Positions 11,797-57,274 of a DNA stretch of 64,000 nt are shown piece by piece. The stretch is from Candidatus Spongiisociaceae bacterium (GTDB lineage Bacteria; Actinomycetota; Acidimicrobiia; Spongiisociales; Spongiisociaceae). How positions within the stretch are numbered: the first letter of the stretch is position 1; every line of letters begins with the position of its first letter. The notes under the pieces are model-generated. The model was not told the origin of the DNA and made no database searches. It saw nothing but the letters and a program-made list of their open reading frames with translations. The stretch covers positions 2,001,962 through 2,065,961 of the forward strand of contig OZ241842.1 of the NCBI GenBank assembly GCA_965202675.1. Reading direction: 5' to 3'. The position numbers were made by a program, and so were the translations under genes.

Positions 11797-14700
11797 GTGC
11801 GGGTGCTCGACGCCGATAACCTCGAAGGCTGGCTCGAATCGAACTATGTCGTCCATGTTCGGGTATCCGAGCAGCTCGGCCGCCGCCCTTTGGAAGCGGA
11901 GTCGTTGGACAGGTGGTGGCCTCGGTGGGCGGACCAGACGGATCCGGTTTTGCCGCCGGCCCTGCTGTTGGCCGGCCGTCGGGCCGAGGCGGAGAAACTT
12001 TGCGCCGCGTTGACCGGGCCCCCGAAGGTCACAGGGGTTCGGGCCGCCTCGCGAGAAGAGGCCTTAGCTTTCGGGGCCGTTGCCCTGAGCACGGTCAAGG
12101 ACGACGTTTCTGCTTCGCCGGCGGCAGTGGTCGTCAAGTCTCTTGCGGTGTGGGATCGGTGTGCGGCGAGTCCCGGCCCGGCCATTCTGATCCCCCCGCG
12201 GGTCGAGGGCATCGACCTGCCGGCCGCGGTCCGGCAGGGTCATCCGGTTCTGATTCCTATGGGAGCAGGTGATGTCGACGGGGGAGGCGAAACGATCCTG
12301 CTTCCCCGGATCGGTCGGTCGGAGGCGCGGGAAGCACTGGAGGCGGCCGGAGCGTCTTCGGACAAGGCGGACGGATACGCGGTCGCGGCCCGCCGGAGCC
12401 TGCTGTCCCTGCGCCGAAGGATTTCCCTGCATCCCGCGACGGCCAGACCTGTGTGGGCGCAAGGCGGGGAAGCCGAGCTGTTGGCGGCCCTCGTATTGGT
12501 CGGGGCGTGGGAACAGAACAACGACTATGACCGCGCCGCAGTGGAGCGGATCGCTGATTGCGGCATCGAGGCGGTGGAGCGCCGGCTGCAGCGCTGGGAG
12601 AACACCGATGATCCTCCCTTCCGACGTTCGGGCGGCGCTTGGCGGTTGTCGTCTCCGGAGGATGCATGGCCGCTCCTTCGCAGCATGATTACCCGGGATT
12701 GCCTGAGGCGGTGGCGCGAGGCAGCGCTCGGAGTGCTGGGCGCTTCCGGTTCGGCGATCGAGCCGCCCGGGGGCCGTTTCTTCGCCCCCTTCCCAGGGGC
12801 GGCGCGGAAATGGTCTGCCGATCTGCGGAGAGGGTTGGCGCAGGGGGCGGTTTTCCTGGCGGCCTTCGATTTGCCGCGGCCCTTGGACGGTCTCAGAGGT
12901 TCCGAACACGCCGAGCGGATGGTGATGGAACTGTTGGATCAGGCAGGCGCCGACTCCGCCGGCGTGTTATGGAGGTCCTTGGCCGATGTACTGCCCTTGC
13001 TGGCAGAGGCGGCGCCGGACATCTTCCTCCGAGCTGTACATCGAGACGCGGCGGGCGGCGCCCCTTTGTTGGCCGGAATGTTCACCGACGCCTGCGGGTT
13101 CACAGGGTCCCCGCATACCGGCCTGCTCTGGGCTTTGGAGGCCTTGTGCTGGTCGGATAGATACCTGCCCTCTGCCCTGGACGCCCTGTTGCGGTTGGCC
13201 GAAATCGATCCGGGAGGCCGGACGGCCAACCGACCCCTGGACAGCGCGCGCCGGGTGCTCCTGCCTTGGCTGCACCAGACAAGCGCCTCGATCGAGCGCC
13301 GTATGGACGTGCTCGACGGTGTTGTGGAGCGTCATGAAAAAAAGGGATGGGAGCTGTTGCTGAGCCTGGTTGCTCTGCGGGGCAGTCATACGCACAATAT
13401 CAACAGACCGCGATTCAGAGATTGGATGACCGAGACGACGGGAATCTCCGGAGAAGAATCACGGCGGGCGGCAGAAGCGATTACTATCCGAGCGCTCAAA
13501 AAGGCTGGCGCCAATCCCTATCTTTGGGCGCAGCTGATCGAACACATACCCCTTCTCTGGGTTGGGCAGAGAGAACAGGTCATCGATGCTCTCGAAAGCT
13601 CAGGCATAGAGGCGCTCGACCATGGTGATCGCTTCGTCATTTGGAAGTCCCTGAACAAGTTGGTCGGGAACCGTCCGGATCGGAAGGCTCTACAGGATAG
13701 ATTGTCTGCCGCCGGCCTTGAGCGTTTGGAGAATATAAGGACCAAAATACGCCCCGATACGCCAGAAGTTCTGATCCAAGAGCATCACGAGTTGTTCGAT
13801 TGGCATCCAGAACGTTCGGATAGAGAGCGTCAGGATGCCGTCACAAGCATCTATCGATCAGCGGGAGTCGGGGGGCTGAGAGACCTGTCGAAGGAAGCTG
13901 TTCGTCCGGAATTGATCGGTGCATCGTCAGCTGACGCCATTATTGATCTGAGGGCAGAAGAGATGCTTCCCCTGTTGAACCAGGAAGGGCCGGATCGCGC
14001 GTTCGTTATGGGATGGATTACTCGAAGGGCAGAGCTCGACGGGGCGGAATGGATAGAAAGAACTGCGGATTCATTGGCAGATTTGTCTCATTCTGGCCAG
14101 GCTCTCTTCTTTCTTTCCTTGAGTCCTGATACTACTGTATGGAAAATCTTGGACCAGATGCCGCCCTCTGTCCAAGATCAATATTGGGAACGGGTCCATT
14201 CTTTTTATATACCACGGAGCGATTTCCTGATGTACTTGGATAAGCTCTTGGAGCACAGGCAACCTTGGTCTGCTGTAGAGTTCCTGTTTAGTCAACTAAG
14301 CAAGGATAAGAAGGAGGGCGGCAGCCTGGTTACAAGCGAGATGGTAGAGCGAACTATACTCAAACTGATAGAATCTGATACGAAGGAGCACCCCAGCGAG
14401 ATGTCTGCCTTTTGTCTGGGTAATTTGCTGGACTATTTGGATAAGCACGAGCCCGACTCGAGCAACCTGGCTGATTTCGAGTTAGCTCTATTTTCGGTAC
14501 TGCGCCGGTCCGACCGCCCGCCGACCGCGATATACCGGCGGCTCCAAGCAGAGCCGGCCGAATTCGTCAAACTGGTCTGCGGCGTCCATCGACTGCCTGA
14601 CGAAGAACCGGAAAATGATTCATTCGAAAGTACTGCTCCGCTTGATAATGCCTGGTCCATTCTGAAGGAATGGCGGACTTTGCCGGGCACCGACCGCGAT

Positions 14701-15126
14701 ACAGGCGATATCGAGCACGAGCGGCTGCGGGCGTGGGTGTTGGAGGCGCGCCGGCTGTTGCGGGAACGGGGCCGGAGCAGCATCGGAGACCAGTACATAG
14801 GAGAGCTCCTGTCCGGCGCCCCATCGGGAAGAGATGGGATATGGCCGGCCGAGCCGGTGAGGGATCTGCTGGAAGAGCTTGCGAGCGAAGGCGTGGAGCA
14901 GGGTGTTCTGGTCGGCCGCTTGAACAGCAGGGGGGTTACCGTCCGTGATCCGTTCGAGGGCGGCGCCCAAGAAAGGGACTCGGCCGGCCGGTACAGCGAT
15001 TGGGCGCAGCAGGTCGAGGCCAAGCGGCCGAGCACCGGCCGGGTGCTGCGGCAGTTGGCCGACTCCTATGAACGGGAAGCCCGCCGGCATGACGAAGAGG
15101 CCGAAGCCCTATCCGACCAGGATTGA
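11797..15126 (+). CDS. Large (1109 aa) hypothetical alpha-helical protein in a partly low-GC insert; no domain recognised
   Basis: The long ORF has sensible codon usage. GC drops to about 55% over roughly 13.3-14.7 kb. The frame stays open upstream of the GTG at 11797. ATG 11573 opens a second frame (146 aa) that overlaps it, so a frameshifted N-terminus is possible. Confidence 0.55.
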   Translation: MRVLDADNLEGWLESNYVVHVRVSEQLGRRPLEAESLDRWWPRWADQTDPVLPPALLLAGRRAEAEKLCAALTGPPKVTGVRAASREEALAFGAVALSTVKDDVSASPAAVVVKSLAVWDRCAASPGPAILIPPRVEGIDLPAAVRQGHPVLIPMGAGDVDGGGETILLPRIGRSEAREALEAAGASSDKADGYAVAARRSLLSLRRRISLHPATARPVWAQGGEAELLAALVLVGAWEQNNDYDRAAVERIADCGIEAVERRLQRWENTDDPPFRRSGGAWRLSSPEDAWPLLRSMITRDCLRRWREAALGVLGASGSAIEPPGGRFFAPFPGAARKWSADLRRGLAQGAVFLAAFDLPRPLDGLRGSEHAERMVMELLDQAGADSAGVLWRSLADVLPLLAEAAPDIFLRAVHRDAAGGAPLLAGMFTDACGFTGSPHTGLLWALEALCWSDRYLPSALDALLRLAEIDPGGRTANRPLDSARRVLLPWLHQTSASIERRMDVLDGVVERHEKKGWELLLSLVALRGSHTHNINRPRFRDWMTETTGISGEESRRAAEAITIRALKKAGANPYLWAQLIEHIPLLWVGQREQVIDALESSGIEALDHGDRFVIWKSLNKLVGNRPDRKALQDRLSAAGLERLENIRTKIRPDTPEVLIQEHHELFDWHPERSDRERQDAVTSIYRSAGVGGLRDLSKEAVRPELIGASSADAIIDLRAEEMLPLLNQEGPDRAFVMGWITRRAELDGAEWIERTADSLADLSHSGQALFFLSLSPDTTVWKILDQMPPSVQDQYWERVHSFYIPRSDFLMYLDKLLEHRQPWSAVEFLFSQLSKDKKEGGSLVTSEMVERTILKLIESDTKEHPSEMSAFCLGNLLDYLDKHEPDSSNLADFELALFSVLRRSDRPPTAIYRRLQAEPAEFVKLVCGVHRLPDEEPENDSFESTAPLDNAWSILKEWRTLPGTDRDTGDIEHERLRAWVLEARRLLRERGRSSIGDQYIGELLSGAPSGRDGIWPAEPVRDLLEELASEGVEQGVLVGRLNSRGVTVRDPFEGGAQERDSAGRYSDWAQQVEAKRPSTGRVLRQLADSYEREARRHDEEAEALSDQD

Positions 15127-28291: not shown

Positions 28292-28378
28292 CTGCCCCTC
28301 CTTGTCGAGACCGGCTGCCAGGATAATCGTACTGCCGTTCCGCCCGCCGCGCCGCCGTACCCCTGTCGGCCCCGGAGG

Positions 28379-28945
28379 TCAGAGGTCCAGGCTCTCGAAC
28401 TTGCTGCGGTGCCTGTTCGGCAAGCCGTCGACCACGGCTTTGGCCGCGGCTATGAGCTCCTGAGCGGCTTCCAACTCGGAACGCGTGCTGTCCAACGCCT
28501 GACGCGACTCGGACAGTTCACCGTCGATCCGGGTCTGGATGCCGTTCACCTGCTCGCGGATGGTTTCCTGCCCGCTCGCCAGCTCGCCCAGCTTGTTGTC
28601 CTGCGTCTCCGATTGTTCGGCCAGCCTGCCGATTTTGTCCTTGGCGGTGTCCACCCCGGTGCGGATAGCAGTCAACTCGGCTCCGGTCACCAGATCCTCT
28701 GCACGCTGCAACGATTCCATGGTCTTTCCTATCGCCGACCGCAACAGGTCGCAGAGCTCCGCCATCTTGGTCGAGGTTTCCCGCAGGCTGCTGGATGCAT
28801 CGGATACAGCCGTCGAAGCCTGCTCCTGTCTGCTTGCGGCACCGGCCATCCCTTTGAGCCGCTCCTGCAACTCCTTCAGGGCATCGGTAGCCTCTTCGAA
28901 GCGGCGCTTGACCGCCTCGAACTCAACTGTATTATCTGATGCCAT
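28379..28945 (-). CDS. 188-aa coiled-coil protein of unknown function (low-GC island, translationally coupled to the helicase gene)
   Basis: Heptad-rich, Q/E/A-rich sequence with no TM segments. It starts 2 nt after the helicase stop. GC is about 52%. Confidence 0.5.
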   Translation of the reverse strand: MASDNTVEFEAVKRRFEEATDALKELQERLKGMAGAASRQEQASTAVSDASSSLRETSTKMAELCDLLRSAIGKTMESLQRAEDLVTGAELTAIRTGVDTAKDKIGRLAEQSETQDNKLGELASGQETIREQVNGIQTRIDGELSESRQALDSTRSELEAAQELIAAAKAVVDGLPNRHRSKFESLDL

Positions 28946-30395
28946 GCTTACTCACCTCCGTAGGTTTCCAGTATAGTGATGGCGAAGTCTCGGGCAAATT
29001 CAACACCTTCCGCTAGGGAGAACACAGTGAGTGGCCAGTTATGCTCACTGTATGTCCACATTTCCTCATCGGTCACAGCAGGAGGCGCTTCCGAATAGTG
29101 AGCTACTCCGAATAAACCGGCCGCCCATTTGGTTTCCCATCCTAAGAAATCAATCATCAAAGAGACCGCTTCGCTGATGACATCCTGAGGAACTTGATAC
29201 AAGACTCGCGCCGACTGCAGGGACTCCTTTAGCCCGTTTTCGAACTCACGAGAGTTGCCGTCTGGAATCATGGCCTCGGTTATTGCTCGGGTAGCTAGTA
29301 ACCATGGATAATCGGGGTAAGAACCAAGCAATCGGCCAGCCGCGCCTCGCCACTCGCGTGCGGTGGTCTCGGTTTCTATTATGTTCCATTCTATTATCCA
29401 TTCAAGGAAACGAAGATACGATTCCTGCACTAATCGCAATAATACTTGGGTTGCGAATCCCTCCTGTAGATAATCCAATATTTGTCGCCGCATTTCCATG
29501 TTAGGATCGCTATTTTCGGCGGCGGAGTGTGTAGCCAACCACATTTCTCTCATCGACCGGCGGCGCGCTGTCTCGATTGTACGATATACAAACCTTATCA
29601 ATTCCTGTCCACATCTTTTGATAGATGACATCAGGTCACCCGGATGCCCTATTCTGTTCCTTATCGCTGTTATTTGTCCAGGTTGACTTCGTTCAATAAA
29701 GGCTTCCAAACTCTTAGTAACTGTTTCCATGCTTACACTGCGAACTGTGACTTCGAAGGTTTGTGATCCGCGCTCCTTTAGATAATCTTCTACTACTCCT
29801 AGAACGGCCAGTCTGTGAAGGGCCCGTTCACGAGCATCCTCGCCAGCTCTCGTTTGTCTATCTCTAAAAGGCAGGCTGATCTCTTGTCGTTCTGTCCTCG
29901 GGTTCAATTCGTATGCAACTCTCATGAGGACAGATATCTCATCTTCCATACCAGCGAAGGTATTAAGGTGAAACCATAGGGCAGTAGTAACATCATCTTT
30001 GGCTCTATTACTAATCTCTTCAATCCGTTGTCGTATGTCCTCCAGAGGAGTATCTTCCGACAAAAGATTCTGATTCCGATCCTTGTCGAATTCGCTAAGG
30101 ATCAGCATGCATTCTGCTCGATCTCCGTCGCGTCCTGCTCTGCCTACTTCCTGATAGTAAGCCTCTATGGATCTTGGAAACAGGTAGTGAATACTCCACC
30201 TAATGTTAGGTTTATCTATCCCCATGCCAAAAGCACTGGTGCACACTAGGGCTAATATTTCATTGTTCATGAAGCGATTAACACTATCGTCCTTTATTAT
30301 CTCGAATTCATGGTGGGAGATGGTTCTTGGATTGCTACCCGCGTACACACCTACGCTAGGACAGATTATCGCAACGGCATCTTTAGCATTAATTA

Positions 30396-31209
30396 GGGCG
30401 TGTTAACACTATTTCGTTTTGATATGGTATCATGCGGGGATGGAGATTACAGAAGCTCAGTACGAGCGTATCAAGTCGTATTTACCGACGCAGCGCGGTA
30501 ATGTCCGCGTGTCGAATCTGGATGTGCTCAACGCTTTTTTGTATGTGTTGGAGCACGGATGTAAGTGGCGGGGGTTGCCTGACCGGTTTGGTAATTGGCA
30601 TACCATCTACACGCGGATGAACCGCTGGTCGAAGAATGGCGTGCTGGACAGGGTGTTTAGGGGTTTGCAGGATGAGGGGATCATCCGGATGAATCTGGAG
30701 GTTGTTTCTTTGGACAGCACGATCGTCAGGGTTCATCCCGATGGGATGGGCGCTCTGAAAAAAAGGGGCCCCAGGCGGTCGGCCGGTCCCGGGGGGGTTG
30801 GACGACCAAGATTCATATGGTTGCCGCGGATGCTCGAACGGCGGTGATGTTTTCTCTTTCTGCGGGTCAGGATCATGACGCTGCGCATGGGCGGAGGCTG
30901 TTGGAGCGGATCGGCGTGCAACAGGATCCGTTGTTCCTGGTGATGGACCGGGCGTATGAGGGGGACGAGACGCGGCAGTTGGCTTTGGATCTGGGGTATA
31001 CGCCGGTGGTTCCTCCTACAGTCCGGCGGCGGAACCCTTGGGTCTATGACCAGGAGGTTTACAAGCGGCGCAACGAGGTCGAGCGGTTGTTCCGACGGCT
31101 GAAGGAGTATCGTCGTGTCTTCTCCCGTTACGATAAACTCGACGTGGTTTACCTGGGGTTCATCACCTTTGCGCTGATAACAGAAACCCTACGTAGTGTT
31201 AACAGGCCC
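30396..31209 (+). mobile_element. IS5-family (IS427/IS1031-group) insertion sequence, 814 bp, with imperfect terminal inverted repeats and a TA target duplication
   Basis: IRL is GGGCGTGTTAACACTAT and IRR is ...TAGTGTTAACAGGCCC. TA flanks both ends. GC is about 50%. It encodes an orfA-orfB transposase. Confidence 0.8.
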
Positions 31210-31212
31210 TAG
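30440..31212 (+). CDS. IS5-family transposase (orfA-orfB, programmed -1 frameshift at A7 run ~30758-30764)
   Basis: OrfA reads MEITEAQYERIKSYLP...VSNLDVLNAFLYVLEHGCKWRGLP...WHTIYTRMNRWSKNGVLD. OrfB (30817-31212) reads ...DHDAAHGRRLLE...LVMDRAYEGDETRQLALDLGYTPVVPP...NEVERLFRRLKEYRRV, the DDE_Tnp_1 C-terminus. The two ORFs overlap around the GAAAAAAAG slippery site. Confidence 0.75.
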
Positions 31213-33715
31213 TCCTGGTAATCCTCCAGGGCGTTGATTAACAGTAGGAACGAATACCAAGCCGGAGAAGGTCTGCTCTCCTCTATTAGGCATAAAATAC
31301 CTTGCTTGATTGACATCAAACAGGGCGGGCAAGCGCCTCAAGCAACCTTGGAGAGTAACTGGGTGATCAGGGGAAGTACATCTTACATGATAGTTGAGTT
31401 CTGGTCGATCAAAGGATTCTGGTTGTACGATAGAATTATCATTGTGTTCCATAATACCCAACTGAAATAGTACATCGCTTAGTACTGCTCGAGATGCTGT
31501 TCCAGTTAAGGCAAGCAGTGGGGGAGGTTGTCCGCTTTGATCTTTAGATAATTTACGAATAATGTTGCCCAAATTGAGGTATGCATATCTGAAGTCATGC
31601 CCCCATTCAGAAACGCAATGTGCCTCGTCTACTACGACTAGGTTGACAAGAGTAGCGTTTGCCAACCTAGCTAAAGCCTTTCTAAATTTCTTTGTCTGAA
31701 TACGCTCGGGAGCGACAAACACATAGTAAGGCTCGGCATTTGCTATATGTTCCAAAACTACATCTTGTTCTCTAGTACGACTTGTGATTTCTTGTACACG
31801 GTCGATGCCGTGGCTTCGTAGGCCTTTAACTTGATCATTAATCAAGGCTACCAACGGGTCGATCACTAAGGTTCGTCCGGGCAGGCATAACCCGGCTAGC
31901 TGATAGATCAAGCTCTTGCCCGCCCCCGTCGGGAGAAGCACGGCACAATCCCTCATGGACATGACCTCGACTATGGCTTCATACTGACCATCACGAAAAC
32001 CCTCTTTGGCAAACACAGCGCGGAGTAATACCCTCAGAGGGTCCCTGCCCTCGTCTCCTTCGATATGAACGGTTGCTCGATTGTTGTCGCCTTCTAGGCG
32101 ATCGGACATCAGAACGGGAACACCTGTGGATCGGATAACCACTGTTGGTGTGCCATCGCGATCAGGGAGTGGCTGGCACGAAGTACGATCACACTGCAAC
32201 AGGATACGGGCGCGAGGGTTAGACACCGATTCTTCGGAGGCATCTTGGCGCTCGTATCGGCCTTCCGGGGTGCGGTGGAAGAGTACTCTATCTTCACTGT
32301 CCTCGAATAACACTCGTCCTGGCACAACGGAGCGGGCATCCCACAGGCAACAGAGGGCGTAAAGAACTTCCAGATATGGTACTATCAGTTCGATGGCCAT
32401 ATGCGTAGGATCTTCGACTTCTACTATCCAGGAATCCCCGCTTAGGAATCCGCGGCGGATGGCTTCGCATAGTCCCAAAACCAAGCGATGAACCTGGATA
32501 GAACCCCAGACCAATAATTTATCTTCATCCGAGGGATTTGTGGCTTGACTGACTGTCGCCTCTATAGCGTTGGTAACGGCTTCAAGTTGAGAGCCGTGTC
32601 CCATTCTGATTTCACTTGTAGACACGCGGATAGTTTCTATGCCGATATTTCTAAGCAATTGGTCCCGCTCTTGGTCAGTTAGTTGTTGAGTTTCGTGTTG
32701 CGTACCGTCTATTTCAATTACAAATGGACAGCTACCCGGTGGTGCCCAGAGAAAATCGCAACGGCGGTTCCCGCCTGCTCCATGGCCTGCTGCCTGCAGG
32801 AGGCCGTCTAATGAAGCTTGAGGTATCAGCCAACGAGCAACTCGTGGATGGTGCTCTGCCATCCATTCCATCAGTAGCCGTTCCTCGTCCGATTCAGCCA
32901 GAGATGGTTCGATTTCAACGTGGTAGCCACCGGGTATCACGGTGAGGTCGCGTAAGCTCACTGAATAAGAATCGTGCAGATTGAATGACACATCTCCCGG
33001 TTGCGAGCTAGGTCGGATACGGTCACCTAGACCGACAGACTCAATCAGTATCCGCTCAGAGTCGGGGTGTAGGGGCGGTGTCAATCCTCGGCGGAGAAGT
33101 TTGCCCATTACGTCCAGCACTCTTTGAGTGTTTCTATCAGACTCAAGTTCGTGGAGAGGGGATGTGCTTGCTATCCAGCAGTTGGAGAGAGAGTCCATGT
33201 CCTCAACCTTGACAGACCTAAGAGATGCTCCTACAGTGGCATATTCGACCTGCCAGCCAGCATTTTCGAAGCCAAAGGTACCATCAGACCAGTGAACACG
33301 TTGTTTTCTGAGAACATCCTGCCCGAATACCTTTGCTGGGTTCGGATGATTGGTGATCATCGTGTCGGGCTGAGGTGTATCCGGAGGGTTTATTATTGGC
33401 GGGTTAGCCCTTTTTTCCTCGTTGCTATTGAAAGTTGTGGTTCCTCGGCAACTGGGGAATTGCAGGCATCCCCAGAAACGGTTTCCGGACCTTGCCCCCT
33501 GCTTCGCGGTGCGAAGGGTCATATCACTCCCACATCTTGGGCATCTGGGGCGGTTTCCACTCGTGCTGTTCCTTCGCCACGTTGACCCCCCGCGCTTGCG
33601 GTGGTCTGTCTCGGAGTCTAACCCCGACGAGGGGTCGCGGTTTCTGGACACACAGGCGTTTGGTGATCGACAAAACTGTCAGGCGGCGATCCCGATGAAG
33701 GGTTATGCACCTCGC

Positions 33716-36353: not shown

Positions 36354-36914
36354 TCAGGCTGGCCGGGTTCCTTCGGGGCCGGCGGCGCCGCGATTGCGTT
36401 CCTGTATTCGGTACAGCTCAGGGAGGGCGGCCAGGTCCGGTTCCCGGCGGAGAGCCTGCTTTGCTTCGATGATGTCGTCGAGGTGCGCTATCAAGACGGC
36501 GGTTCCATATATACGGACAGTGCGGGCCTTGGGCAGGAGCGCATCGTAATCGGCCAGGTTGCCGGCCCGGGTCGGGGCGCCCGAAACGACATCGAGGTCG
36601 CCGTGGCGGGTGCGCCAGGCAGATACCTCAAAGGACGACAGGGACTGTCCGTCGATGGGGAAGTCGACGACGGCTCGGGAACCAGGGGTGTCTCCTTCCA
36701 CGCGCAACCGGGCGCCCATCGCGACGAGAGCGTCCGCAAGCCGGCCGAGGTTGCCGTCCTGCCATTGCGGGGTTATGTCGAAGCCTCTGGTTACGCGGTG
36801 AGAACCGTGGGCCGCGGCGGCGATGCCTCCTATGACTATGTAGACCACCTTGTGCTCGGCGAGGGTGTCGACCATTTCCCTGGTCGAGAGAGCGGGCGCG
36901 TCAGGGTCGCTCAT
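36354..36914 (-). CDS. Nucleotidyltransferase-fold-like protein (possible toxin/partner of XRE regulator)
   Basis: The start is taken at MSDPDA (residue 104 of ORF 36354-37223), overlapping the XRE stop as ATGA. The IVIGGIAAAAHGSHRVTRGFDI hG[GS]...D motif is suggestive but unconfirmed. Confidence 0.45.
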   Translation of the reverse strand: MSDPDAPALSTREMVDTLAEHKVVYIVIGGIAAAAHGSHRVTRGFDITPQWQDGNLGRLADALVAMGARLRVEGDTPGSRAVVDFPIDGQSLSSFEVSAWRTRHGDLDVVSGAPTRAGNLADYDALLPKARTVRIYGTAVLIAHLDDIIEAKQALRREPDLAALPELYRIQERNRGAAGPEGTRPA

Positions 36915-37261
36915 GGGGAGAGGCCCGAACGGAGCTGGGACACCAGCGATGCGTAGGCGTCGTTGGCGGATAAGCGTTCTTCCACTTTCTGTTCCAGCGC
37001 TGTGGAGGAGAGCAGCTCGTGATCGGGCCGGTCTGCAAGCTTCAGCTCCAGGTGCATGCCGCAGGCTTCGACGATCCGGATGAGGGTTCCGATCTCCGGC
37101 AGGACCAGGGCCCGTTCGTACCGGCTGATCTCGGCCTGCGATGTCCCGGCCCGCTCGGCCAGCTCGGCCTGGGTGTACCCCGCTCTCCGACGCGCCTCGC
37201 GGATAATCGACCACGCCGGCCATCGGGCCGGATCGATCCGTCGTTTGGGCGCCGCAACCAT
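36911..37261 (-). CDS. XRE-family helix-turn-helix transcriptional regulator (antitoxin-like)
   Basis: AGYTQAELAERAGTSQAEISRYERALVLPEIGTLIRIVEACG is a classic Cro/C1 HTH. It is 116 aa. Confidence 0.7.
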   Translation of the reverse strand: MVAAPKRRIDPARWPAWSIIREARRRAGYTQAELAERAGTSQAEISRYERALVLPEIGTLIRIVEACGMHLELKLADRPDHELLSSTALEQKVEERLSANDAYASLVSQLRSGLSP

Positions 37262-37370
37262 CCTGTTATGTGTTATAGCATATATTCAGGAGTCCTCGGA
37301 CCATTACGTTGGGCCCGAGCGTCCAAGCCGACCTCAGGGAAGTACATCCAAAGTTGTGCGGCGCTCGAAA

Positions 37371-37456
37371 TTCTAGGGAAAATACCTATAATCCAGCGCA
37401 AAGTTGGGATTTTTGCTAAGAATTTGCTAGTTTCTAGGGAAAATACCTGTAATTTG
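37371..37456. promoter_or_regulatory. Two 22-25-bp direct repeats (TTCTAGGGAAAATACCT[A/G]TAAT) each embedding a -10-like hexamer, in the divergent XRE/ATPase intergenic region
   Basis: Copies sit at about 37371-37395 (with a perfect TATAAT) and 37432-37456 (TGTAAT), spaced about 61 bp apart in an AT-rich region. Confidence 0.4.
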
Positions 37457-37497
37457 GACAATCCGGGGTTCTGGGGTCGGAATCGGGAGGAGATGGG

Positions 37498-39546
37498 ATG
37501 GCGGGGCGGCCGATGTTCAGGCGGCGGGTGCTCGATAGGGCGCTCGAGGCCATGCGCAGCTTTCCGGTGGTGATGCTGCAGGGGCCGAGGATGGTGGGCA
37601 AGACCACCCTGCTCGAGGAGATGGCCGGGCGTTTGGGCGGGGCTGTCGTCGATCTCGACCACCCGGGCGCCAGGTCGAAGGTCAGGGCCGACCCCGACTC
37701 GGCGGTCACCGGACCCGGCCCTGGGTTCATCGACGAATATCAGAAGATGCCGGAGTTGCTCAACTACATAAAGGCCCGGCTCAACGTCGATGGGTCCCCC
37801 GGCCGGTTTGTGTTAACCGGATCGTCCCGTCACGAGGCTCTGCCCAGGGGCGTCCAGGCGTTGACCGGCCGGTTGCTCAGGCTGCCTGTTCTGCCCCTGT
37901 CGCAGACCGAGATAGCCGGGGCGGGGGGCAACTTCATCGAAAATATGTTCGACAGCCCGGAGGCGTTCGCTTCCTCCGGCGGCGGCGGCCGCGAAGACTA
38001 TGCGGCGAGGGTCGTTGCAGGGGGGTTCCCCATGCAGGTCAACAGCCGCGATGACCGAGAGCGCCGGGGGATGATTGAGCAGTACCTCCGGCTGTCGATC
38101 GAGGTGGACGCCCGCGAGCTGCTGCGGGTGCACCGGCCCGAGGCCCTTTCCTGCTTTCTGCAGCGGCTGGCCGCCCAGACCGGGCAGATCCTCAACATGG
38201 CCAAGGCGGGCGGTGATGTGGGCGTCAAGGCCGGCGCCGCCGAGAACTACACCAGGCTCTTGGAGGCTGTCTTCATCCTGCGGCGGCTGCCGGCGTGGCG
38301 GAAGACCGCCCGCGGTCCGGTCCGCCGCCCCAAGATATACGTCCTCGATTCGGGGGTGGCCGCCCACCTGCTCGGTTTCACGGCGGAGAGGCTGCGCAGC
38401 AACGCCCCTTTTGCCGCCGAGCAGTTCGGTCATCTGCTGGAGACCTTCGCGGTGGGCGAGATTTGGAAGGCGGCCTCGTGGCTGGAAGACGCCCCCATGT
38501 ACAAGGTCGGGTATTGGAAGCACCGGAGCGGCGCCGAGGTCGATCTGGTGATCGAACGTCCGGACGACGGCGCGGTGATCGCCCTCGAGGTCAAGGCCGC
38601 CCAACAGGTCCGGCCCGATGACACCAAGGGGCTCCGCCTGCTGCGGGACGAGCTGGGGGAGCGCTTCAGGGCCGGCGCCGTGCTCTACACCGGTCGTGAA
38701 ATATACCGCCTGCCCGACGGCCTGTACGCGATGCCCATCGAAGCGGTGTGGCAAGGGGAGGCCGTCGAACAGCCCGGCCCCGACCGGCGCCGGCATGGAG
38801 GAGGGAAGGTTCGCGCGCCGGGCGGGCTTCGGGCTGCGGGCGAGGCCGCCGCCGAGGATGCATTGCCGCCGCCGGTCCGCGCCGCCGCCGACCGGATGCT
38901 GGAGATGCTGAATCCGGGGGAGTCGGCTTACTGGGAGATAGCGGTCACGCCGTCAGAGCCGGTGCACTTCGACGACTTCTATTCCTCGGCGGGCGTTCGC
39001 GGCGCCCTGATGGAACTGCAGACCCGTTATCCGGGGCGGCGGGCCTTCGGCCTCGGCCATCAAGGGGCGGTGCAGACCATCGGCGAGTGCGCAGCCCTGC
39101 TTGACGCCGGCCGGGGGATCCTGGTGCATCCGGCGGGAACTGTGGCGGCGGCGGCCTTGGGCATCGATGCAGAGTTCCGGGATTTCCTGGGATGGTCGGA
39201 CGACCTTGAAGACAGGCATCTCATCGCCAGGCACGAAGTACTGAACCAGTGGCCGCTGGAGATCGCCCTCTTCATCCATGAGCAGCTCCGGCCCTGCCTT
39301 CCGGCCGGGGAGTTGATCTTCTGGTCGGCGGGCAGGCGGCTTCTGACCGGACGGCCCGCCCTCCTGCTGGGGGATGAGCAAGGATCGCCGCCCTCGCTGA
39401 CACCCGCGGTGGTCGACAACCCCTACCGCAAGAGAATCCTATCCACGGGCGATCCCGAGGTCGACGCCTACCACCTGAAGGCGTCCTTCTACGAATGGTT
39501 CGGCATTCCCGCCGCCGACCTACCGGAAGCCGGCAGGGCCGTATAG
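37498..39546 (+). CDS. AAA_14/DUF4143-family ATPase with ~280-aa C-terminal extension of unknown function
   Basis: It has a Walker A motif (LQGPRMVGKTTL), a DUF4143-like middle region and a strong GGGAGGAG RBS. The 682-aa length compares with about 400 aa for typical family members. Confidence 0.7.
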   Translation: MAGRPMFRRRVLDRALEAMRSFPVVMLQGPRMVGKTTLLEEMAGRLGGAVVDLDHPGARSKVRADPDSAVTGPGPGFIDEYQKMPELLNYIKARLNVDGSPGRFVLTGSSRHEALPRGVQALTGRLLRLPVLPLSQTEIAGAGGNFIENMFDSPEAFASSGGGGREDYAARVVAGGFPMQVNSRDDRERRGMIEQYLRLSIEVDARELLRVHRPEALSCFLQRLAAQTGQILNMAKAGGDVGVKAGAAENYTRLLEAVFILRRLPAWRKTARGPVRRPKIYVLDSGVAAHLLGFTAERLRSNAPFAAEQFGHLLETFAVGEIWKAASWLEDAPMYKVGYWKHRSGAEVDLVIERPDDGAVIALEVKAAQQVRPDDTKGLRLLRDELGERFRAGAVLYTGREIYRLPDGLYAMPIEAVWQGEAVEQPGPDRRRHGGGKVRAPGGLRAAGEAAAEDALPPPVRAAADRMLEMLNPGESAYWEIAVTPSEPVHFDDFYSSAGVRGALMELQTRYPGRRAFGLGHQGAVQTIGECAALLDAGRGILVHPAGTVAAAALGIDAEFRDFLGWSDDLEDRHLIARHEVLNQWPLEIALFIHEQLRPCLPAGELIFWSAGRRLLTGRPALLLGDEQGSPPSLTPAVVDNPYRKRILSTGDPEVDAYHLKASFYEWFGIPAADLPEAGRAV

Positions 39547-39581
39547 CCTTCTCGCCTCTGCCCGGTCGGGCGGGGGGCGGA

Positions 39582-40966
39582 TCACGCGGAGGCGGGTCCT
39601 TCCCGCAGCCGGGCGGCGAGATCTTCAGGGGCGGTGAAGACCACTTGCCGGCCTTCCTTGTAGTCGTTGAGCCATCCATGGTTCTGTAGGGTGAGTAGAT
39701 CAGTGCGCGCTGTTTGTCGGGATACGTTGTGGCTGCGGGCATGGCTCTGGTATGTGTAGCGGGTCCCCGGTTTTCTCAGGGCGTGGCCGAGCAACGCCCT
39801 TTGCCGGTGGTTCAAACCCGGTAGTTCCCCCGCCGCCTGCTCCGCGGCGCGGGTTCGTTCAATGGTCTTGTCAACGTAATTTGCCAATTCCTCGAATGCC
39901 CGTCCCATGACATCGAGCTGGTGGAGGAGGAAGTACGTCAGGTCATTGTCGTCGGTCTCGGAATGGATGAAGGCGCGTCCGTATTGTGCGGGTGCACCCA
40001 GGATGATCTTCGAGATAGAGACGAATTCGACCAGCCAGTACCCGGCCCGCAGGGCGTCCAGTAGAACAGGGCGCGGGCGGTGCGTCCGTTGCCGTCGACG
40101 AACGGATGCACGTAGGCCAGCCAGAAGTGCAGCATGATCGCCTTGACCAAAGGGTGGGTGAACGGTCCGTGCTCGTCGTTGGCGAACTCGCAGAGCTGAT
40201 CGATGCGCTCCGGGATCTCCTCCGCCGGCGGCGGCTTGTGCACCAGATCTTCATCTCGGTCGTAAACGGCCACCCTGGCCTCGCCCGGTTGTTGAAACCG
40301 CCCGGCGTCCGCCGGTTCTTCCAGGGTTCCATCGGTGAGCTCTGCATGCAGCTCCATCAGCAGGGCCGGGGTCAGATCCTGCGTTGCGGCCTCCCCGATC
40401 CGGCGAATGGCCCGGTAGTTGTTGATGATCATCCGCTCCGATCGGTCGCGGGGTTGCCGTCCTGCCCTCAGCATTTCCTTCGCCACTCGGCGGGTAGTAG
40501 CGGCGCCTTCGAGCAGTGAAGAGGAGATGGCTTCTTCGATCATCCCCCGCACCATGTACCGGTCGCGGGTGGTTCGGTCCACGACCGCGGCGGGCGCGGC
40601 CAGCCGGCCGGCGGCGCGCAGGTCCAGGTGGTGCAACCGCTCCAGAAGCGGGTCGACGAGGCTGTAGGTGAACGGTTCGCCGCGCGTGTCCATCAGATCG
40701 GTCGGTCGGGCGGACAGATGCCGCGTCAGGCGCATTCCCATCCACCATTGCTCCCGGGTGAGCCCCTCGGGGGGTTTCCGCCTGCGTACCTCGTCCCAGT
40801 GCAGGTAGCGGCCGTTTACGGCGGCGCCGATTTCGACCAGCCTGCTCAATATTTGGGGGCCGACGCCCTCCAGCGCAGTGGACATCGGCGGCGGTCGTGC
40901 TATTCGGATGGTCATTTCTGCTCCGAGTGGTGGGGGCTTCCTGCCGGGGACAGCAAGTGCAGGCAA
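39582..40966 (-). pseudogene. Fic-family protein gene (DUF4172-Fic-wHTH architecture) with a frameshift just after the Fic motif
   Basis: ORF 39938-40966 carries HPFVDGNGRTARALFYW and then runs out of frame. The authentic continuation (LLDALRAGYWLVEF...) and the C-terminal wHTH (ORF 39582-39908) lie in the adjacent frame, so a 1-nt indel is implied. Confidence 0.7.
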
Positions 40967-40969
40967 GTG

Positions 40970-41005
40970 TATAATTTAGTGCTAAGAAGTGCTAATTTAG
41001 CACTT
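40970..41005. promoter_or_regulatory. TATAAT hexamer plus 9-1-9 palindrome AAGTGCTAA-T-TTAGCACTT (with an extra AGTGCTAA half-site) upstream of fic
   Basis: A perfect inverted repeat lies in the 70-bp gap between the fic start and the etfA stop. Confidence 0.4.
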
Positions 41006-41037
41006 GGGTGGGTTCCGCTCTCGACAGGGGCGGCGGG

Positions 41038-42033
41038 TTATCCGTCTTCTCGGGCGAGGCCTCGGCGGCGGATTATCTCGGCGGTGATGGCGGGCACCAC
41101 CTCGTGGAGGTCGGCGATCACGGCCCAGTCGGCTTTGGTGACCATCGGGGCGTCGCGGTCGGTGTTGACGGCCAGGACGTGCTTGGCGTTCATCATGCCC
41201 ACCCAATGCTGGATGGCGCCCGAGATGCCGCAGGCGATGTAGAGGTCGGGCGCTACGACCGTTCCGGTCTGGCCCACCTGGAACTTGTGGTTCTTCCAAC
41301 CGTTGTTGGTAACCACCCGCGAGCAGCCCACCGCGCCGCCCAGCAGCTCGGCCAGCTCCTCGATGCCGGCGAAACCCTCGGCGCTGCCCACGCCCCGCCC
41401 CCCGCTCACCACCACCGGCGCGGTGGCCAGGGTGATCCCTTCGGTGAGGGTCACCCGGTCCTGCACCATGGTTGCGGCGGCCGACTCGTCGAGCTCCGGG
41501 GTGAACACCGAGCGCCGCCCGCCGTCCGCAGCCGGGGAGGGGGCGGCCTCGGTGCTGTGCGGAGCGAGCGTTACCAGCTTGGTCGGGGCCGACAGCCGGG
41601 CCTGCTCGTGGAGGCTGCCGCCCCAACGGACCCGGGTCATCGTCCAGTCGGCGCCGTCGGCTTCGATCTCCAGGCAGTTGGCGGCCATCGCCAGGTCCAT
41701 CCTCGCCCCGGCCCCGGCCATGACCTCGTTGCCCCGATCGGTGCCGGTTGCCATGACCGCCGCCGCGTCGAGGGCGCCGGCCAGCTGGACCAGGCTGTCG
41801 GCCCACGCGTCGGGTCCGTAATCGGTGAGCATCGGATGCCGGACCAGATGGGTCTCCTCCGCGCCGTAGGGGTCGATCTCGTCCGCGACCGCGTCCGCCC
41901 CCTCGCCGATCACCGCCGCATGGAGCCGGGCGTCCATGGCCTCGGCCAGCAGGCGGGCCCCGGTGAGGCCGCCGAGCGCCGTCTCTTCGATCCGGCCGCG
42001 GTCGTGCTCGACCAGGTAGAGGAAAACGCTCAC
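41038..42033 (-). CDS. etfA: Electron transfer flavoprotein alpha subunit
   Basis: The C-terminal FAD-binding signature is present (LYIACGISGAIQHWVGMMNAKHVLAVNTDRDAPM). Confidence 0.9.
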   Translation of the reverse strand: MSVFLYLVEHDRGRIEETALGGLTGARLLAEAMDARLHAAVIGEGADAVADEIDPYGAEETHLVRHPMLTDYGPDAWADSLVQLAGALDAAAVMATGTDRGNEVMAGAGARMDLAMAANCLEIEADGADWTMTRVRWGGSLHEQARLSAPTKLVTLAPHSTEAAPSPAADGGRRSVFTPELDESAAATMVQDRVTLTEGITLATAPVVVSGGRGVGSAEGFAGIEELAELLGGAVGCSRVVTNNGWKNHKFQVGQTGTVVAPDLYIACGISGAIQHWVGMMNAKHVLAVNTDRDAPMVTKADWAVIADLHEVVPAITAEIIRRRGLAREDG

Positions 42034-54837: not shown

Positions 54838-55608
54838 GTGGAAGGGGAGAGCGGGTCCCTTGCGGAACCGGGCTCTCCCCGGGTAGAATTGTTTGCTCTG
54901 CAACAGTATAGCAGGAAAATGACCGCATTGGAAGCACCGCATCTGGTCATCGGCCGACTGCGCGACTACTTCGCGCGCAGAACCAACTGGCAACGCCGAC
55001 TCTGGAATCCAGGAACCGTCACTGTACTACAGGAGACTTTGGAAGCGGTTCAGCTACTTGAGGGTGAACAAGTCGCTCTAGATGGGTAGCTCCAAGGTTG
55101 CCATGACTAGAAAGGGTATATAATCATAGTTTAGATTGATTACAAAGCATATGATAACCAGGATGATGACGAATGAGCCGCTTAGCTCGGCTCCTCGGCG
55201 ATTGGGCTGTGCCTGTAATCGGCGTGTTTCCGCGGTTGGTCGGCGGAAACAAAACCCTTATCCCTTGGAACTACCCATCTAGGGGCCGTTGAAGCCTTGG
55301 CGAGAACAGCGGAGCGGCGAGCTGGACCGGATTCTGGGATTGGTACTACGGCTAAACGAAAGGCTATCACCGAGACCCTCCGTAAGGTAAGCAAAAGCCA
55401 GATGGTCAGGTATCAGTTTGAGTATCTCCTCCGGGGGGTTGGTGATGGTTACCTGCAACGTTGGTCGGAGAAACTGAGGGACCAGCCAGATAAGATCAAG
55501 ACCGAAGAGGCTTCACGATTAGTGGCGGGGCACCTACTCGGTCTAGGTTTCAGCCCCGATAAGCTCCATCGGTGGTCAACTTGGCTATATAGGCAAAGAC
55601 AGCCCTAA
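54838..55608 (+). pseudogene. Small ORF (~185 aa, unknown function) interrupted in frame by a MITE-like element
   Basis: ORF 54838-55089 stops at the TAG inside the left TIR. ORF 55297-55608 resumes in the same frame. Removing 55078-55278 rejoins them as ...EGEQVAL/GAVEALARTAE.... Confidence 0.45.
55078..55282. mobile_element. MITE-like 205-bp nonautonomous element with 20-bp terminal inverted repeats (CTAGATGGGTAG[C/T]TCCAAGG) and CTAG/TA target duplication
   Basis: The ends are near-perfect inverted repeats (1 mismatch). The interior is AT-rich and non-coding, and the insertion is in frame in the host ORF. Confidence 0.55.
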
Positions 55609-55963
55609 ACGCTAGCAGATCTATTCGAGGAAGCCGAAGCCTTGGCGCGTTCAAGGAAGGCCGAGTGGGTGGTGTTTATCCCGTTCCGAGCCCTTGGGCG
55701 GCATGGCCAAACAATGCCAGACGAGTGGCTTGACCTAGGATAGGCGAGCCGATGGTTGTTAGATCATGTTGGAAGTGTCAAAATACGGTCACTGATCTGG
55801 TTGCTCTTTATGGTATTGGCTGAAACCAACTCTCTCTTCATGCCTTCAAGTACGGGCAGATGCGGTTGCCAATGGGTGGGATGGCTCGTTGCCGAGGGTA
55901 GCCTTGCCCCCGCTGGTGGTTTCATCCTTGAGAAACCTTACGGTTTTAAGGTCCGGTCCCGGT

Positions 55964-57274
55964 TCAACCAAGGGGCAGGGGCGGATGGTCGGGTTGGGGC
56001 AGTCCGGGGCCCCATAGGCCGGCGATCGGGGCGGCTTCTACGCCGCGGTCGAGCTCGTACCGGTGCGGCCCGGTGTGGAATAGCACTCCGCCGTGGAAGC
56101 GGTCTCCGGCTACTTTGTCCCGGAACCAGATCAGGTGGCGGGCATCCGACCGGGTGGGGGCGCGGCCGGCCTTGAACTCGAAGGCGAAGAGCTTCATTCC
56201 GCGCTCGGCCACCAGGTCGATCTCGCGGTCTCCGTTGGCGGTGCGGAGGTGGTACAGCCGCACCCTTCCGTCCGCTTCGGCCTCCACCCGGAGCTGGGCC
56301 GTTATGAAGGTGTCGAGCATCCGGCCCCTCAGATCGGCATCGGAATAGACATCGTCGACGGTCAGATTCAAGGCGGCGCAGGCCAGGCCGGGGTCGGTGA
56401 ACTGGCGCTTGACCCGGTCGACCAGCAGGCGTTTCTGCCGGTTGCCGGTCCAGGGAGGGAGCTCGTCGACAATCCCGAGCGTTGTCAAGGCGTAGAGGTA
56501 GCCGTTGGCGGTGCGTTGGTCGATCCCGACCCGCCCGTGGATGGTCGAGTGCGGTGCCACCCCCGCGGTGTTGAGGGCGTAGGATTCCATGTAGGAGCGG
56601 AAGAGCCGGGCGTCCTTGGGCCGGCCGGTGTCGGCGGCCAGCGAGCGCAGGTCGCGATTGACTATGGCCTCCGAATAGGAACGGAGCCATTGCGCCCGCT
56701 CGCGGCCACCCGGTATTGCGATGGCCTCGGGGAAACCGCTCGCCAGAGCTGTCTCGAGGTACTCGCGCAGTCCGGGCGGGTCGGCGGGTACGCTGAACCG
56801 CCGGTCTCGGTCGTTCCACCGCTCGAACAAGGACGGGGCCGCCGCCGACCCGAAGCGTTCCCGCCCCGTGATGCCCCAGAGGCGTTGACGGACGAGCCTG
56901 CCCGTGCCCGGCCACATATCGGTCAGCAGGTCGTTGCGGGCCGAACCCGTCACGATGAACCTTCCGGGGGCCGGATGGTCGTCGACCTTTCGCTTCACCG
57001 CCCTCAGGACATCGGGGACCAGCTGCCATTCGTCGATCAACAAAGGGGGTTGCCCGGTTGCCGCCGCTATGGGGTCGGCCCGGCACAGGTCCTGATCGTC
57101 GGGGTCGTCGAGGCGCAGCTGCGACGCCGAGAACTCGAGGCCGGTGCGGGTCTTTCCGGCAGCTCGCGGGCCGGTGATGAGCATCCCCGGGAAGTTGTCC
57201 AGGCCCGTTCGGAGGGCGCGGTCGATTATGCGCGGGCGGTACGGCCTCGCACCGGGCGCGTCGTCACCCGGCAT
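55964..57274 (-). CDS. AAA_14/DUF4143-family ATPase (paralog of 37498-39546)
   Basis: It has a Walker A motif (ITGPRAAGKTRT) and a DUF4143-like C-terminal part. Length is 436 aa. Confidence 0.7.
   Translation of the reverse strand: MPGDDAPGARPYRPRIIDRALRTGLDNFPGMLITGPRAAGKTRTGLEFSASQLRLDDPDDQDLCRADPIAAATGQPPLLIDEWQLVPDVLRAVKRKVDDHPAPGRFIVTGSARNDLLTDMWPGTGRLVRQRLWGITGRERFGSAAAPSLFERWNDRDRRFSVPADPPGLREYLETALASGFPEAIAIPGGRERAQWLRSYSEAIVNRDLRSLAADTGRPKDARLFRSYMESYALNTAGVAPHSTIHGRVGIDQRTANGYLYALTTLGIVDELPPWTGNRQKRLLVDRVKRQFTDPGLACAALNLTVDDVYSDADLRGRMLDTFITAQLRVEAEADGRVRLYHLRTANGDREIDLVAERGMKLFAFEFKAGRAPTRSDARHLIWFRDKVAGDRFHGGVLFHTGPHRYELDRGVEAAPIAGLWGPGLPQPDHPPLPLG

Follow-up and report, generated by a model that had tools for sequence, protein, structure and literature searches.

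Probable recent transposition of an IS427-group element into a RecQ-family nuclease-helicase gene of a presumed sponge-symbiont Acidimicrobiia lineage

A long helicase gene in the stretch of DNA analysed here (the window, 64 kb) is cut in two by an insertion sequence (IS). How was the gene split, how long ago, and what kind of gene was lost? The account that we hold with high confidence is that a DDE-type IS of the IS427 group recently transposed into a RecQ-family nuclease-helicase gene, at a T-TA-G site. This IS5-family element moved into a YTAR-type site and duplicated its TA, cutting the gene between its two RecA lobes; the gene's own ATG is also mutated to ACG. In this account the helicase is a presumed pseudogene, its downstream partner is exposed to polarity, and the transposase depends on frameshifting. 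The helicase gene would be an accessory gene with which a sponge-symbiont Acidimicrobiia lineage (Ca. Spongiisocius-like) can dispense, and one that mutation has repeatedly removed.

The element, its ends, and its target site are positioned as follows.

30396..31209, + strand: complete insertion sequence assigned to the IS5 family, IS427 group; 814 bp, 56% GC; absent from the same site in the related contigs L003, L001, and L002
30396..30411, + strand: left terminal inverted repeat (IRL), GGGCGTGTTAACACTA, recognized by the end consensus common to 145 related elements
31194..31209, - strand: right terminal inverted repeat (IRR), reverse complement GGGCCTGTTAACACTA, read from the sequence
30394..30395, no strand: left TA copy of the 2-bp target-site duplication; a single TA in the L003 empty site
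31210..31211, no strand: right TA copy of the 2-bp target-site duplication, read from the sequence; a single TA in the L003 empty site

A preliminary description of this DNA had proposed an element of 814 bp with TA on both flanks, and its boundaries hold to the nucleotide. As read on the window, the right end of the IS is TAGTGTTAACAGGCCC, with its last base at 31209; the repeats span 16 bp, and IRL is identical to the reverse complement of IRR at 15 of these 16 positions. The inverted-repeat pattern, searched with up to 3 mismatches, occurs at only 2 places in the 64-kb window, both of them ends of the IS, where 0.23 occurrences are expected by chance. BLAST of the element and of its protein finds no second copy or fragment in the same 64 kb. 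The target site is TTAG (T-TA-G) with the TA duplicated, and the IS is oriented antisense to the helicase gene. A search for outward promoters or terminators at the IS ends yields nothing exceeding chance, and no Rfam family is present between 27 and 35 kb of the window.

The uninterrupted allele is found on a public metagenome contig (L003; ENA ERZ25070167) whose collinearity with the window extends across 22 kb, at ~99% identity. The parts of the split gene, and the gene that follows it, compare with this contig in the following manner.

33562..33564, - strand: native start codon of the helicase gene, ATG in L003, L001, L002, and L084, and ACG in the window
31212..33564, - strand: 5' part of the helicase gene, with a Top1-type zinc ribbon, a DUF559/Vsr-like nuclease, and RecA lobe 1 with DEAH; identical to L003 except at 33563
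28948..30395, - strand: 3' part of the helicase gene, with RecA lobe 2 (motifs IV-VI) and a C-terminal region of ~380 aa; 100% identical to L003
28379..28945, - strand: downstream partner, a 188-aa predicted coiled-coil protein that starts 2 nt past the helicase stop

Removal of the IS and one TA leaves a single open minus-strand frame that reads ...VNQRPGGLPG-L-INAKDAVAIICPS... across the junction. This IS-less reconstruction aligns with L003 over 7200 bp at 99.46% identity and with 0 gaps, and the junction in L003 matches the predicted empty site at 79 of 79 nt. Two further contigs with the same gene order, L001 and L002 (93% and 88% identity), are likewise uninterrupted. At the protein level, full-length homologues of the reconstructed helicase (1250-1283 aa, 79-89% identity) align gap-free across the junction; P0001 reads RPGGLPGLINTKDAVAIICPSVGVYAGSN. 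The 90% cluster that contains the window's N-terminal helicase fragment also has a full-length member, P0088, encoded on L003. Thus, the gene can be reconstructed to the nucleotide, as had been proposed, and the uninterrupted allele that was to be sought in relatives has been found by sequence comparison. An intact allele of the same species exists, otherwise identical apart from the start codon. Because the filled and empty sites are compared within one species, the insertion and its 2-bp duplication are shown directly; a filled/empty polymorphism of this kind shows a transposition event, and it makes the locus a clean worked example. The event itself is routine: one more IS-disrupted gene and a new IS427-group IS.

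The same comparison bears on the proposal that there was no insertion in the cell, and that a repeat-induced misjoin during assembly placed an IS copy into an intact helicase gene. IS elements are a classic cause of misassembly, and this one differs in composition from its surroundings (56% GC, versus 49% for the gene and 69% for the genome). However, the junctions are as transposition makes them, with both inverted repeats, the TA duplication, and the YTAR target of the clade; a misjoin would leave no such duplication. Moreover, to either side of the IS the sequence is collinear with that of L003, and the source contig is 3.0 Mb long. We consider an assembly artefact extremely improbable and retain transposition as the source of the split.

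The age of the insertion can be gauged against the flanking genes. The comparison over 7.2 kb contains 39 mismatches, all of them outside the helicase and partner genes except the one at 33563. Identity to L003 is 99.96% for the 5' half of the helicase gene and 100% for both the 3' half and the partner gene, compared with 98.7-99.3% for the flanking GcvT, BKACE, 3HCDH, and MFS genes. Since the helicase halves carry no substitution relative to L003 bar the start codon, the insertion is younger than the ~1% divergence of the flanks and postdates every substitution in the gene. On this measure the insertion is recent, as the preliminary description had it.

The coding capacity of the element is divided between two frames.

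30440..30847, + strand: orfA, 135 aa from its ATG, DUF4096-type N-terminal part of the transposase (Pfam PF13340, 4e-22, residues 3-73 of the fusion)
30758..30764, + strand: A7 run, CTG AAA AAA AGG, predicted to join orfA to orfB by a -1 shift or a +1 A transcriptional slip
30757..31212, + strand: orfB frame, -1 relative to orfA, DDE catalytic part (Pfam DDE_Tnp_1, 6.6e-14)

An orfA/orfB pair bridged by an A7 run had been recognized earlier, and it is confirmed here, with orfB in the -1 frame and the overlap at 30758-30764. Joined by a -1 shift at the A7, orfA and orfB yield a fusion of 257 aa. The frame of orfB passes through IRR and ends at TAG (31210-31212), a stop codon to which the duplicated TA contributes two bases and the flanking G the third. 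Assignment to the IS5 family, also proposed earlier, is well founded. The fused transposase scores 242.8 bits against the NCBIfam model NF033580 (transpos_IS5_3; cutoff 110), 52.6 bits against PF01609 (cutoff 23), and 78.6 bits against PF13340 (cutoff 34.3); other NCBIfam IS5 models stay below threshold, with 34 and 24 bits versus cutoffs of 140. In an alignment of 120 homologues, D92, D170, E215, Y208, and R211 are each at least 97% conserved, and the window transposase keeps these and all other residues conserved to that degree. K222 (96% conserved in the same homologues) is present as well and completes the signature Y208-x2-R211-x3-E215-x6-K222. About a dozen residues differ from the 90% consensus.

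An active transposase would be made only if orfA and orfB were joined at the A7, either by -1 ribosomal slippage or by the insertion of one A during transcription, and this requirement would keep transposase levels low. Poly-A frameshifting in transposase-like genes increases with run length, from ~10% for A7 to 40% for A9; G_AAA_AAA is listed among the conserved slippery heptamers, and transcriptional realignment has been argued for DDE_Tnp_1 families (PMC3711429). In the window, the efficiency of frameshifting at the A7 may be low, because the zero-frame reading G AAA AAA is imperfect as an X XXY YYZ heptamer and because no stimulatory RNA structure beyond shuffled controls is found 3' of the slippery run (z = +1.0).

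Most relatives in which the site can be located have a poly-A run at the same position. The usual form is A8, CTA AAA AAA ACGG, with the catalytic part in the -1 frame; relatives with A9 or A6 have a single fused ORF. The window run has the total length of the A8 form with its first A changed to G, and the two-frame layout is therefore ancestral and no new lesion. We also considered the frameshift as a new inactivating mutation and rejected it: the conserved A8 form has just this length, and most relatives share the -1 arrangement.

Could the insertion instead be old, with the IS an inactive relic that carries a frameshifted transposase pseudogene and the helicase long dead? The transposase does lie in two frames, its A7 is shorter than the A8 of relatives, around a dozen of its residues are off the 90% consensus, and no sister copy was found. 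Yet a transposase in two frames is conserved in the clade, at a length equal to the A8 form; the inverted repeats, the duplication, and all catalytic residues are intact; and the helicase halves, start codon apart, have no substitutions relative to an intact allele with flanks that are ~1% diverged. We regard an old, decayed insertion as very unlikely, and favor a recent transposition.

To which group does the element belong? The comparative panel comprises ~160 related loci, of which 145 complete elements were used for ends and targets. These 145 elements share the end consensus GGGC[G/C]TGTTAACAC and have lengths of 813-827 bp. They are flanked by TA on both sides in 139 of 145 cases, and the inferred targets are CTAG (106), TTAG (16), CTAA (12), and TTAA (4); a YTAR target with the TA duplicated is the rule of the clade. 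The set thus provides, for this IS clade, a target and duplication rule and a conserved poly-A recoding site.

The type element IS5 is ~1.2 kb long, has a single transposase ORF, and generates a 4-bp duplication; its preferred target is of the YTAR/CTAG type, and its DDE transposase carries a Y-(2)-R-(3)-E-(6)-K signature. The signature and the type of target recur in the window IS, but this element is 814 bp long, uses two frames, duplicates 2 bp, and matches the transpos_IS5_3 model with the other IS5 models below cutoff. Membership in the IS427 group was judged by a length of ~800-1000 bp with short terminal inverted repeats, a 2-bp duplication, and overlapping ORFs with a frameshift motif; the window IS has all of these (814 bp with 16-bp repeats, a duplicated TA, and the orfA/orfB overlap). 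By ISfinder convention it would take a new IS name. Described features of the group are a length of 832-865 bp (~830-865), direct repeats of 2 bp, and a frameshift motif in a pair of overlapping ORFs, and examples are IS1248, ISPpa2, and ISPaes1 of Paracoccus (PMC3281130, Dziewit et al. 2012); occasional natural single-ORF variants also occur (PMC3281130). The likeness extends to small size (814 bp in the window versus 832-865 bp), terminal inverted repeats of 13-21 bp, the direct repeat of 2 bp, a frameshift motif that links overlapping ORFs, a full DDE motif in the fusion only, natural single-ORF variants now and then, and the combination of DUF4096 and DDE_Tnp_1. The window IS differs in its slippery run, an A7 after G rather than an A8, and in a transposase ORF that extends across IRR to a stop formed by the duplicated TA and a purine, a minority state present in 19 relatives. 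By these sequence features, we classify the element as a new IS of the known IS427 group of the IS5 family.

The nearest transposases are 75% identical at the amino acid level and come from a sponge-associated Dehalococcoidia MAG and from ENA metagenome proteins. Plasmid-borne ISs of Burkholderia, Variovorax, and Cupriavidus ("IS5 family transposase") are ~70% identical at the nucleotide level over the whole element, those of Burkholderia and Variovorax being the nearest. Many relatives come from MAGs named for sponge-associated groups (Entotheonella, Dehalococcoidia, and Binatia), and the clade is spread over many phyla of sponge-associated bacteria. No copy above 75% amino acid identity was found in species-representative genomes, metagenome contigs, or a collection of 5.8 billion proteins, and metagenome contigs contain 0 exact matches to a 33-mer from the 5' end of the IS. 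Look-ups by exact product likewise return no record for orfB, for orfA, or for either annotated helicase fragment (P0006 and P0089). The intactness of the window copy suggests that it may be active.

What remains of the helicase gene? The IS separates RecA lobe 1, which holds the motifs through DEAH and III, from lobe 2, which holds motifs IV-VI. The 5' fragment acquires six extra codons from the IS, GPVNTT, and then terminates at TAG 31191-31189. Three codons into IRL, a TAA closes the frame of the 3' fragment, which can begin no earlier than GTG 30348. Of the earlier statement that the IS ends supply both the stop codon of the N-terminal fragment and the first codons of the C-terminal fragment, the first part stands and the second, in the sense that counts, does not: IRL offers a TAA and no start codon.

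A second lesion lies at the beginning of the gene, and the preliminary description made no mention of it. The ATG conserved in L003, L001, L002, and L084 is preceded by GAAGGA, 6 nt upstream. In-frame stops lie just upstream of it in L001 and L084, so that this ATG is the true start. The change from ATG to ACG at 33563 is the only substitution in 4.5 kb (4533 bp) relative to L003. One random substitution in this 4533-bp stretch would disable the helicase with p = 0.034 and abolish the start codon with p = 5e-4. The ACG could in principle be a base-call error. The window strain's helicase gene is, by our inference, a pseudogene. An N-terminal fragment of 820 aa that opens at GTG 33651 was set aside as a mechanical ORF: the conserved start lies 29 codons downstream, and the GTG is without comparable support.

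The intact protein has, from N- to C-terminus, a Top1-type zinc ribbon, a DUF559/Vsr-like nuclease, a RecQ-family core, and ~380 residues that have no Pfam match. At E values of up to 1, further Pfam matches in the N-terminal, middle, and C-terminal regions are limited to DUF559 and weak hits of restriction-endonuclease type. Across 28 homologues, D270, E284, D286, and H290 of the nuclease do not vary. The reconstructed protein exceeds the cutoff of the RecQ subfamily model TIGR00614 (264.2 bits versus 219.8) and falls short of the equivalog models TIGR01389 (268.9 bits versus 640.2) and NF008279 (221 bits versus 1015). Like E. coli RecQ (PDB 1oyw; match 6.5e-56), it has an SF2 core with DEAH, VSEWGHDFR, and both RecA lobes. 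Unlike the housekeeping enzyme, it combines this core with a zinc ribbon, a DUF559/Vsr-like nuclease, a C-terminal region of ~380 aa, and a small coiled-coil partner; RecQ zinc-binding, RQC, and HRDC domains (PF16124, PF09382, and PF00570) were not detected in it. By its equivalog scores and domain content, the interrupted gene is not a housekeeping RecQ.

The helicase forms a two-gene module with its partner, since a small coiled-coil homologue follows the helicase in every context examined (L001, L002, L003, L084, L085, and L086). The partner starts only 2 nt after the helicase stop, so that it is probably co-transcribed with the helicase and exposed to polarity from the IS; in the window strain, it is probably under-expressed. 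The module is an island of ~50% GC (49% for the helicase gene) in a genome of 69% GC. In the window lineage, it always lies between GcvT and BKACE, which belong to a carnitine/betaine catabolic cluster; in the window, the helicase gene has GcvT, BKACE, an MFS transporter, and its 188-aa partner as neighbors. A variable slot ~3 kb upstream in the window encodes an XRE regulator, an AAA_14/DUF4143 ATPase of PDC-S01 type (423 bits), and a SoFic-like protein; in L002, the same slot holds an MmeI-like methyltransferase and a PLD-SNF2 protein. Elsewhere, the module stands beside PIN, methyltransferase, GmrSD, and Fic genes (L085) or among housekeeping genes (L086).

The window allele is one of several broken alleles. 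The truncated members of the helicase clusters are independently broken alleles of the same locus: one 2-bp deletion near nt 1038 of the helicase gene is common to L247 (ENA) and L248 (from an independent Logan assembly), and L249 (two contigs) has a 1-nt insertion near nt 1776. The intact alleles have dN/dS of 0.15-0.31, which indicates purifying selection and functional constraint. The dS of the helicase is 3-5x that of flanking genes (L003-L002, 0.51 versus 0.10-0.12; L003-L001, 0.20 versus 0.07), and the window and L003 carry the same allele despite flanks that are ~1% diverged. This pattern indicates that old alleles are swapped by recombination at a fixed slot and that function is recurrently lost. 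Relaxed selection on a dispensable gene accounts for it, and selection against a costly defence gene would fit as well. The population sample comprises ~14 alleles.

The preliminary description had offered either inactivation of a costly gene or a very recent transposition. Both hold, and they are not exclusive alternatives. A stronger version is that the module is a costly or auto-toxic defence system and that its loss-of-function alleles are positively selected in the symbiont lineage. Several observations point this way: the window strain has two lesions that disable the gene, and its 4533 bp hold no further substitution (p = 0.034 for a disabling change and 5e-4 for loss of the start); two more independent frameshift alleles exist at the locus; the intact alleles are under purifying selection, with a synonymous excess over the flanks that implies allele turnover; the nuclease residues are invariant among homologues; and the module lies ~3 kb from the PDC-S01/SoFic-like slot (MmeI-like methyltransferase and PLD-SNF2 in L002) and, in L085, beside PIN, methyltransferase, and GmrSD genes. 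However, matches to known defence families stop at the generic RecQ core, the architecture is without a defence description in the literature, relaxed selection would lead any dispensable gene to break recurrently just as well, the ~14 alleles are a small sample, and the L086 module lies among housekeeping genes. We judge an adaptive knock-out to be possible and, on balance, unlikely; loss of a dispensable gene, here through a recent transposition, is the reading that we prefer.

Is there reason to call the helicase a defence gene at all, as had been done from the outset? The label is an assumption. Against PADLOC-DB v2, the helicase matches only generic RecQ-core models (DpdF and PsyrT), reaching 169.8 bits with the DpdF model NF041063 versus a cutoff of 550, and the 188-aa partner has only weak coiled-coil matches (E >= 1e-5). 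The neighboring genes examined contain no Dpd domain (dpdA-K, queuosine-type), and a literature search on DUF559, RecQ, and anti-phage activity returned nothing relevant; no described defence system has this architecture. The PADLOC matches in nearby genes are PDC-S01 and SoFic, and their variable slot is suggestive of a defence role for the helicase module. Hhe consists of an SF1 helicase joined to a Vsr/DUF559 nuclease. The window protein resembles Hhe, DpdF, and PsyrT/RqlH in being a single large protein that joins a nuclease of restriction-endonuclease fold with a helicase, and it resembles nuclease-helicase defence proteins in its low GC, its fast evolution, and its location near variable defence-candidate genes. 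It differs from Hhe in its RecQ-type core, with no Hhe match, and from PsyrT/PsyrA in a partner that is not PsyrA-like.

We advance only tentatively, and with more doubt than assent, the idea that this undescribed two-gene nuclease-helicase module is a defence or anti-mobile-element system of sponge symbionts and other bacteria, one that occupies a fixed slot, maintains deep allelic diversity, exchanges alleles by recombination, and is repeatedly lost as costly. Its pattern, namely purifying selection, synonymous divergence in several-fold excess of the flanks, and at least three independent knock-outs in close strains, is what one would expect to see in a population for a conflict or defence gene, and makes the uncharacterised module a candidate for experiments.

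A phage origin of the helicase was considered and rejected: only 3 of 80 viral-contig matches cover most of the architecture, at 28-29% identity, and the remainder reflect the generic RecQ core. Regarding the host lineage, the BKACE protein of the window falls in a cluster of at least 90% identity with a protein of Candidatus Spongiisocius sp. (Acidimicrobiia), and the more distant relatives of the helicase include one from Ca. Poriferisodalis.

The RecQ-like nuclease-helicase gene split by the insertion sequence (IS) carries a second disabling lesion: its start codon (window 33562-33564, minus strand) is ACG, where the conserved state is ATG. This change is the sole substitution across ~4.5 kb between the window and the intact allele of L003, a metagenome contig of the same species, and it therefore counts as a lesion independent of the insertion. 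Orthologous helicases at the same GcvT/BKACE locus have been broken by independent frameshifts in other strains:

L247, 7001-10769: frameshifted helicase ortholog, 2-bp deletion near nt 1038, common to L248
L248, 1428-5196: frameshifted helicase ortholog, 2-bp deletion near nt 1038, common to L247
L249, 4990-8776: frameshifted helicase ortholog, 1-nt insertion near nt 1776

The helicase and its 188-aa coiled-coil partner form a low-GC island (window 28367-33715; 49-62% GC, in a genome of 69% GC). The start-codon substitution aside, the island matches L003 fully, while its flanks differ by ~1%; against L001 and L002, the more diverged uninterrupted loci, synonymous divergence of the helicase is 3-5 times that of its flanks. 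Together, these patterns suggest that alleles are swapped by recombination while the slot stays fixed.

Near the helicase lies a gene cluster whose ATPase has a counterpart further along the window:

36354-40966: clustered genes for an XRE-type HTH protein, an AAA_14/DUF4143 ATPase (PADLOC PDC-S01 match, 423 bits), and a SoFic-like Fic protein (98 bits), plus an unknown ORF that spans 186 aa in L003
55964-57274: second PDC-S01-like ATPase (AAA_14/DUF4143)

L002 has other genes in the equivalent slot, one for an MmeI-like methyltransferase and one for a PLD-SNF2 protein, and the slot at 36354-40966 is therefore a variable hotspot. Near the Fic/ETF boundary, BLAST segments overlap between window 40861-41348 and L003 19729-19926, which indicates that a small duplication or indel distinguishes the two.

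The IS itself has no stop codon for its transposase ORF, which runs on through the right inverted repeat (IRR, ...CCC; window 31207-31212) and ends at a TAG composed of the duplicated TA and the flanking G. For an ORF open through the IRR, a stop codon is provided by any insertion into a YTAR target, and closure outside the element is a layout common to 19 related elements. Members of this IS clade vary in poly-A length from A6 to A9 and are present in sponge-associated MAGs of many phyla (L004-L083), including Dehalococcoidia, Binatia, Entotheonella, and Alpha- and Gammaproteobacteria, a distribution consistent with exchange between co-resident symbionts. Some genomes hold many copies; OZ243977.1, for example, contributes 8 of the loci retrieved.

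Elsewhere in the window, a 1109-aa ORF (11797-15126) has no Pfam or PADLOC match, and its 3' part overlies a stretch at 13-15 kb where GC falls to 56-59%. A further low-GC patch (55001-56000, 53.5%) contains short ORFs only and adjoins the second AAA_14/DUF4143 gene.
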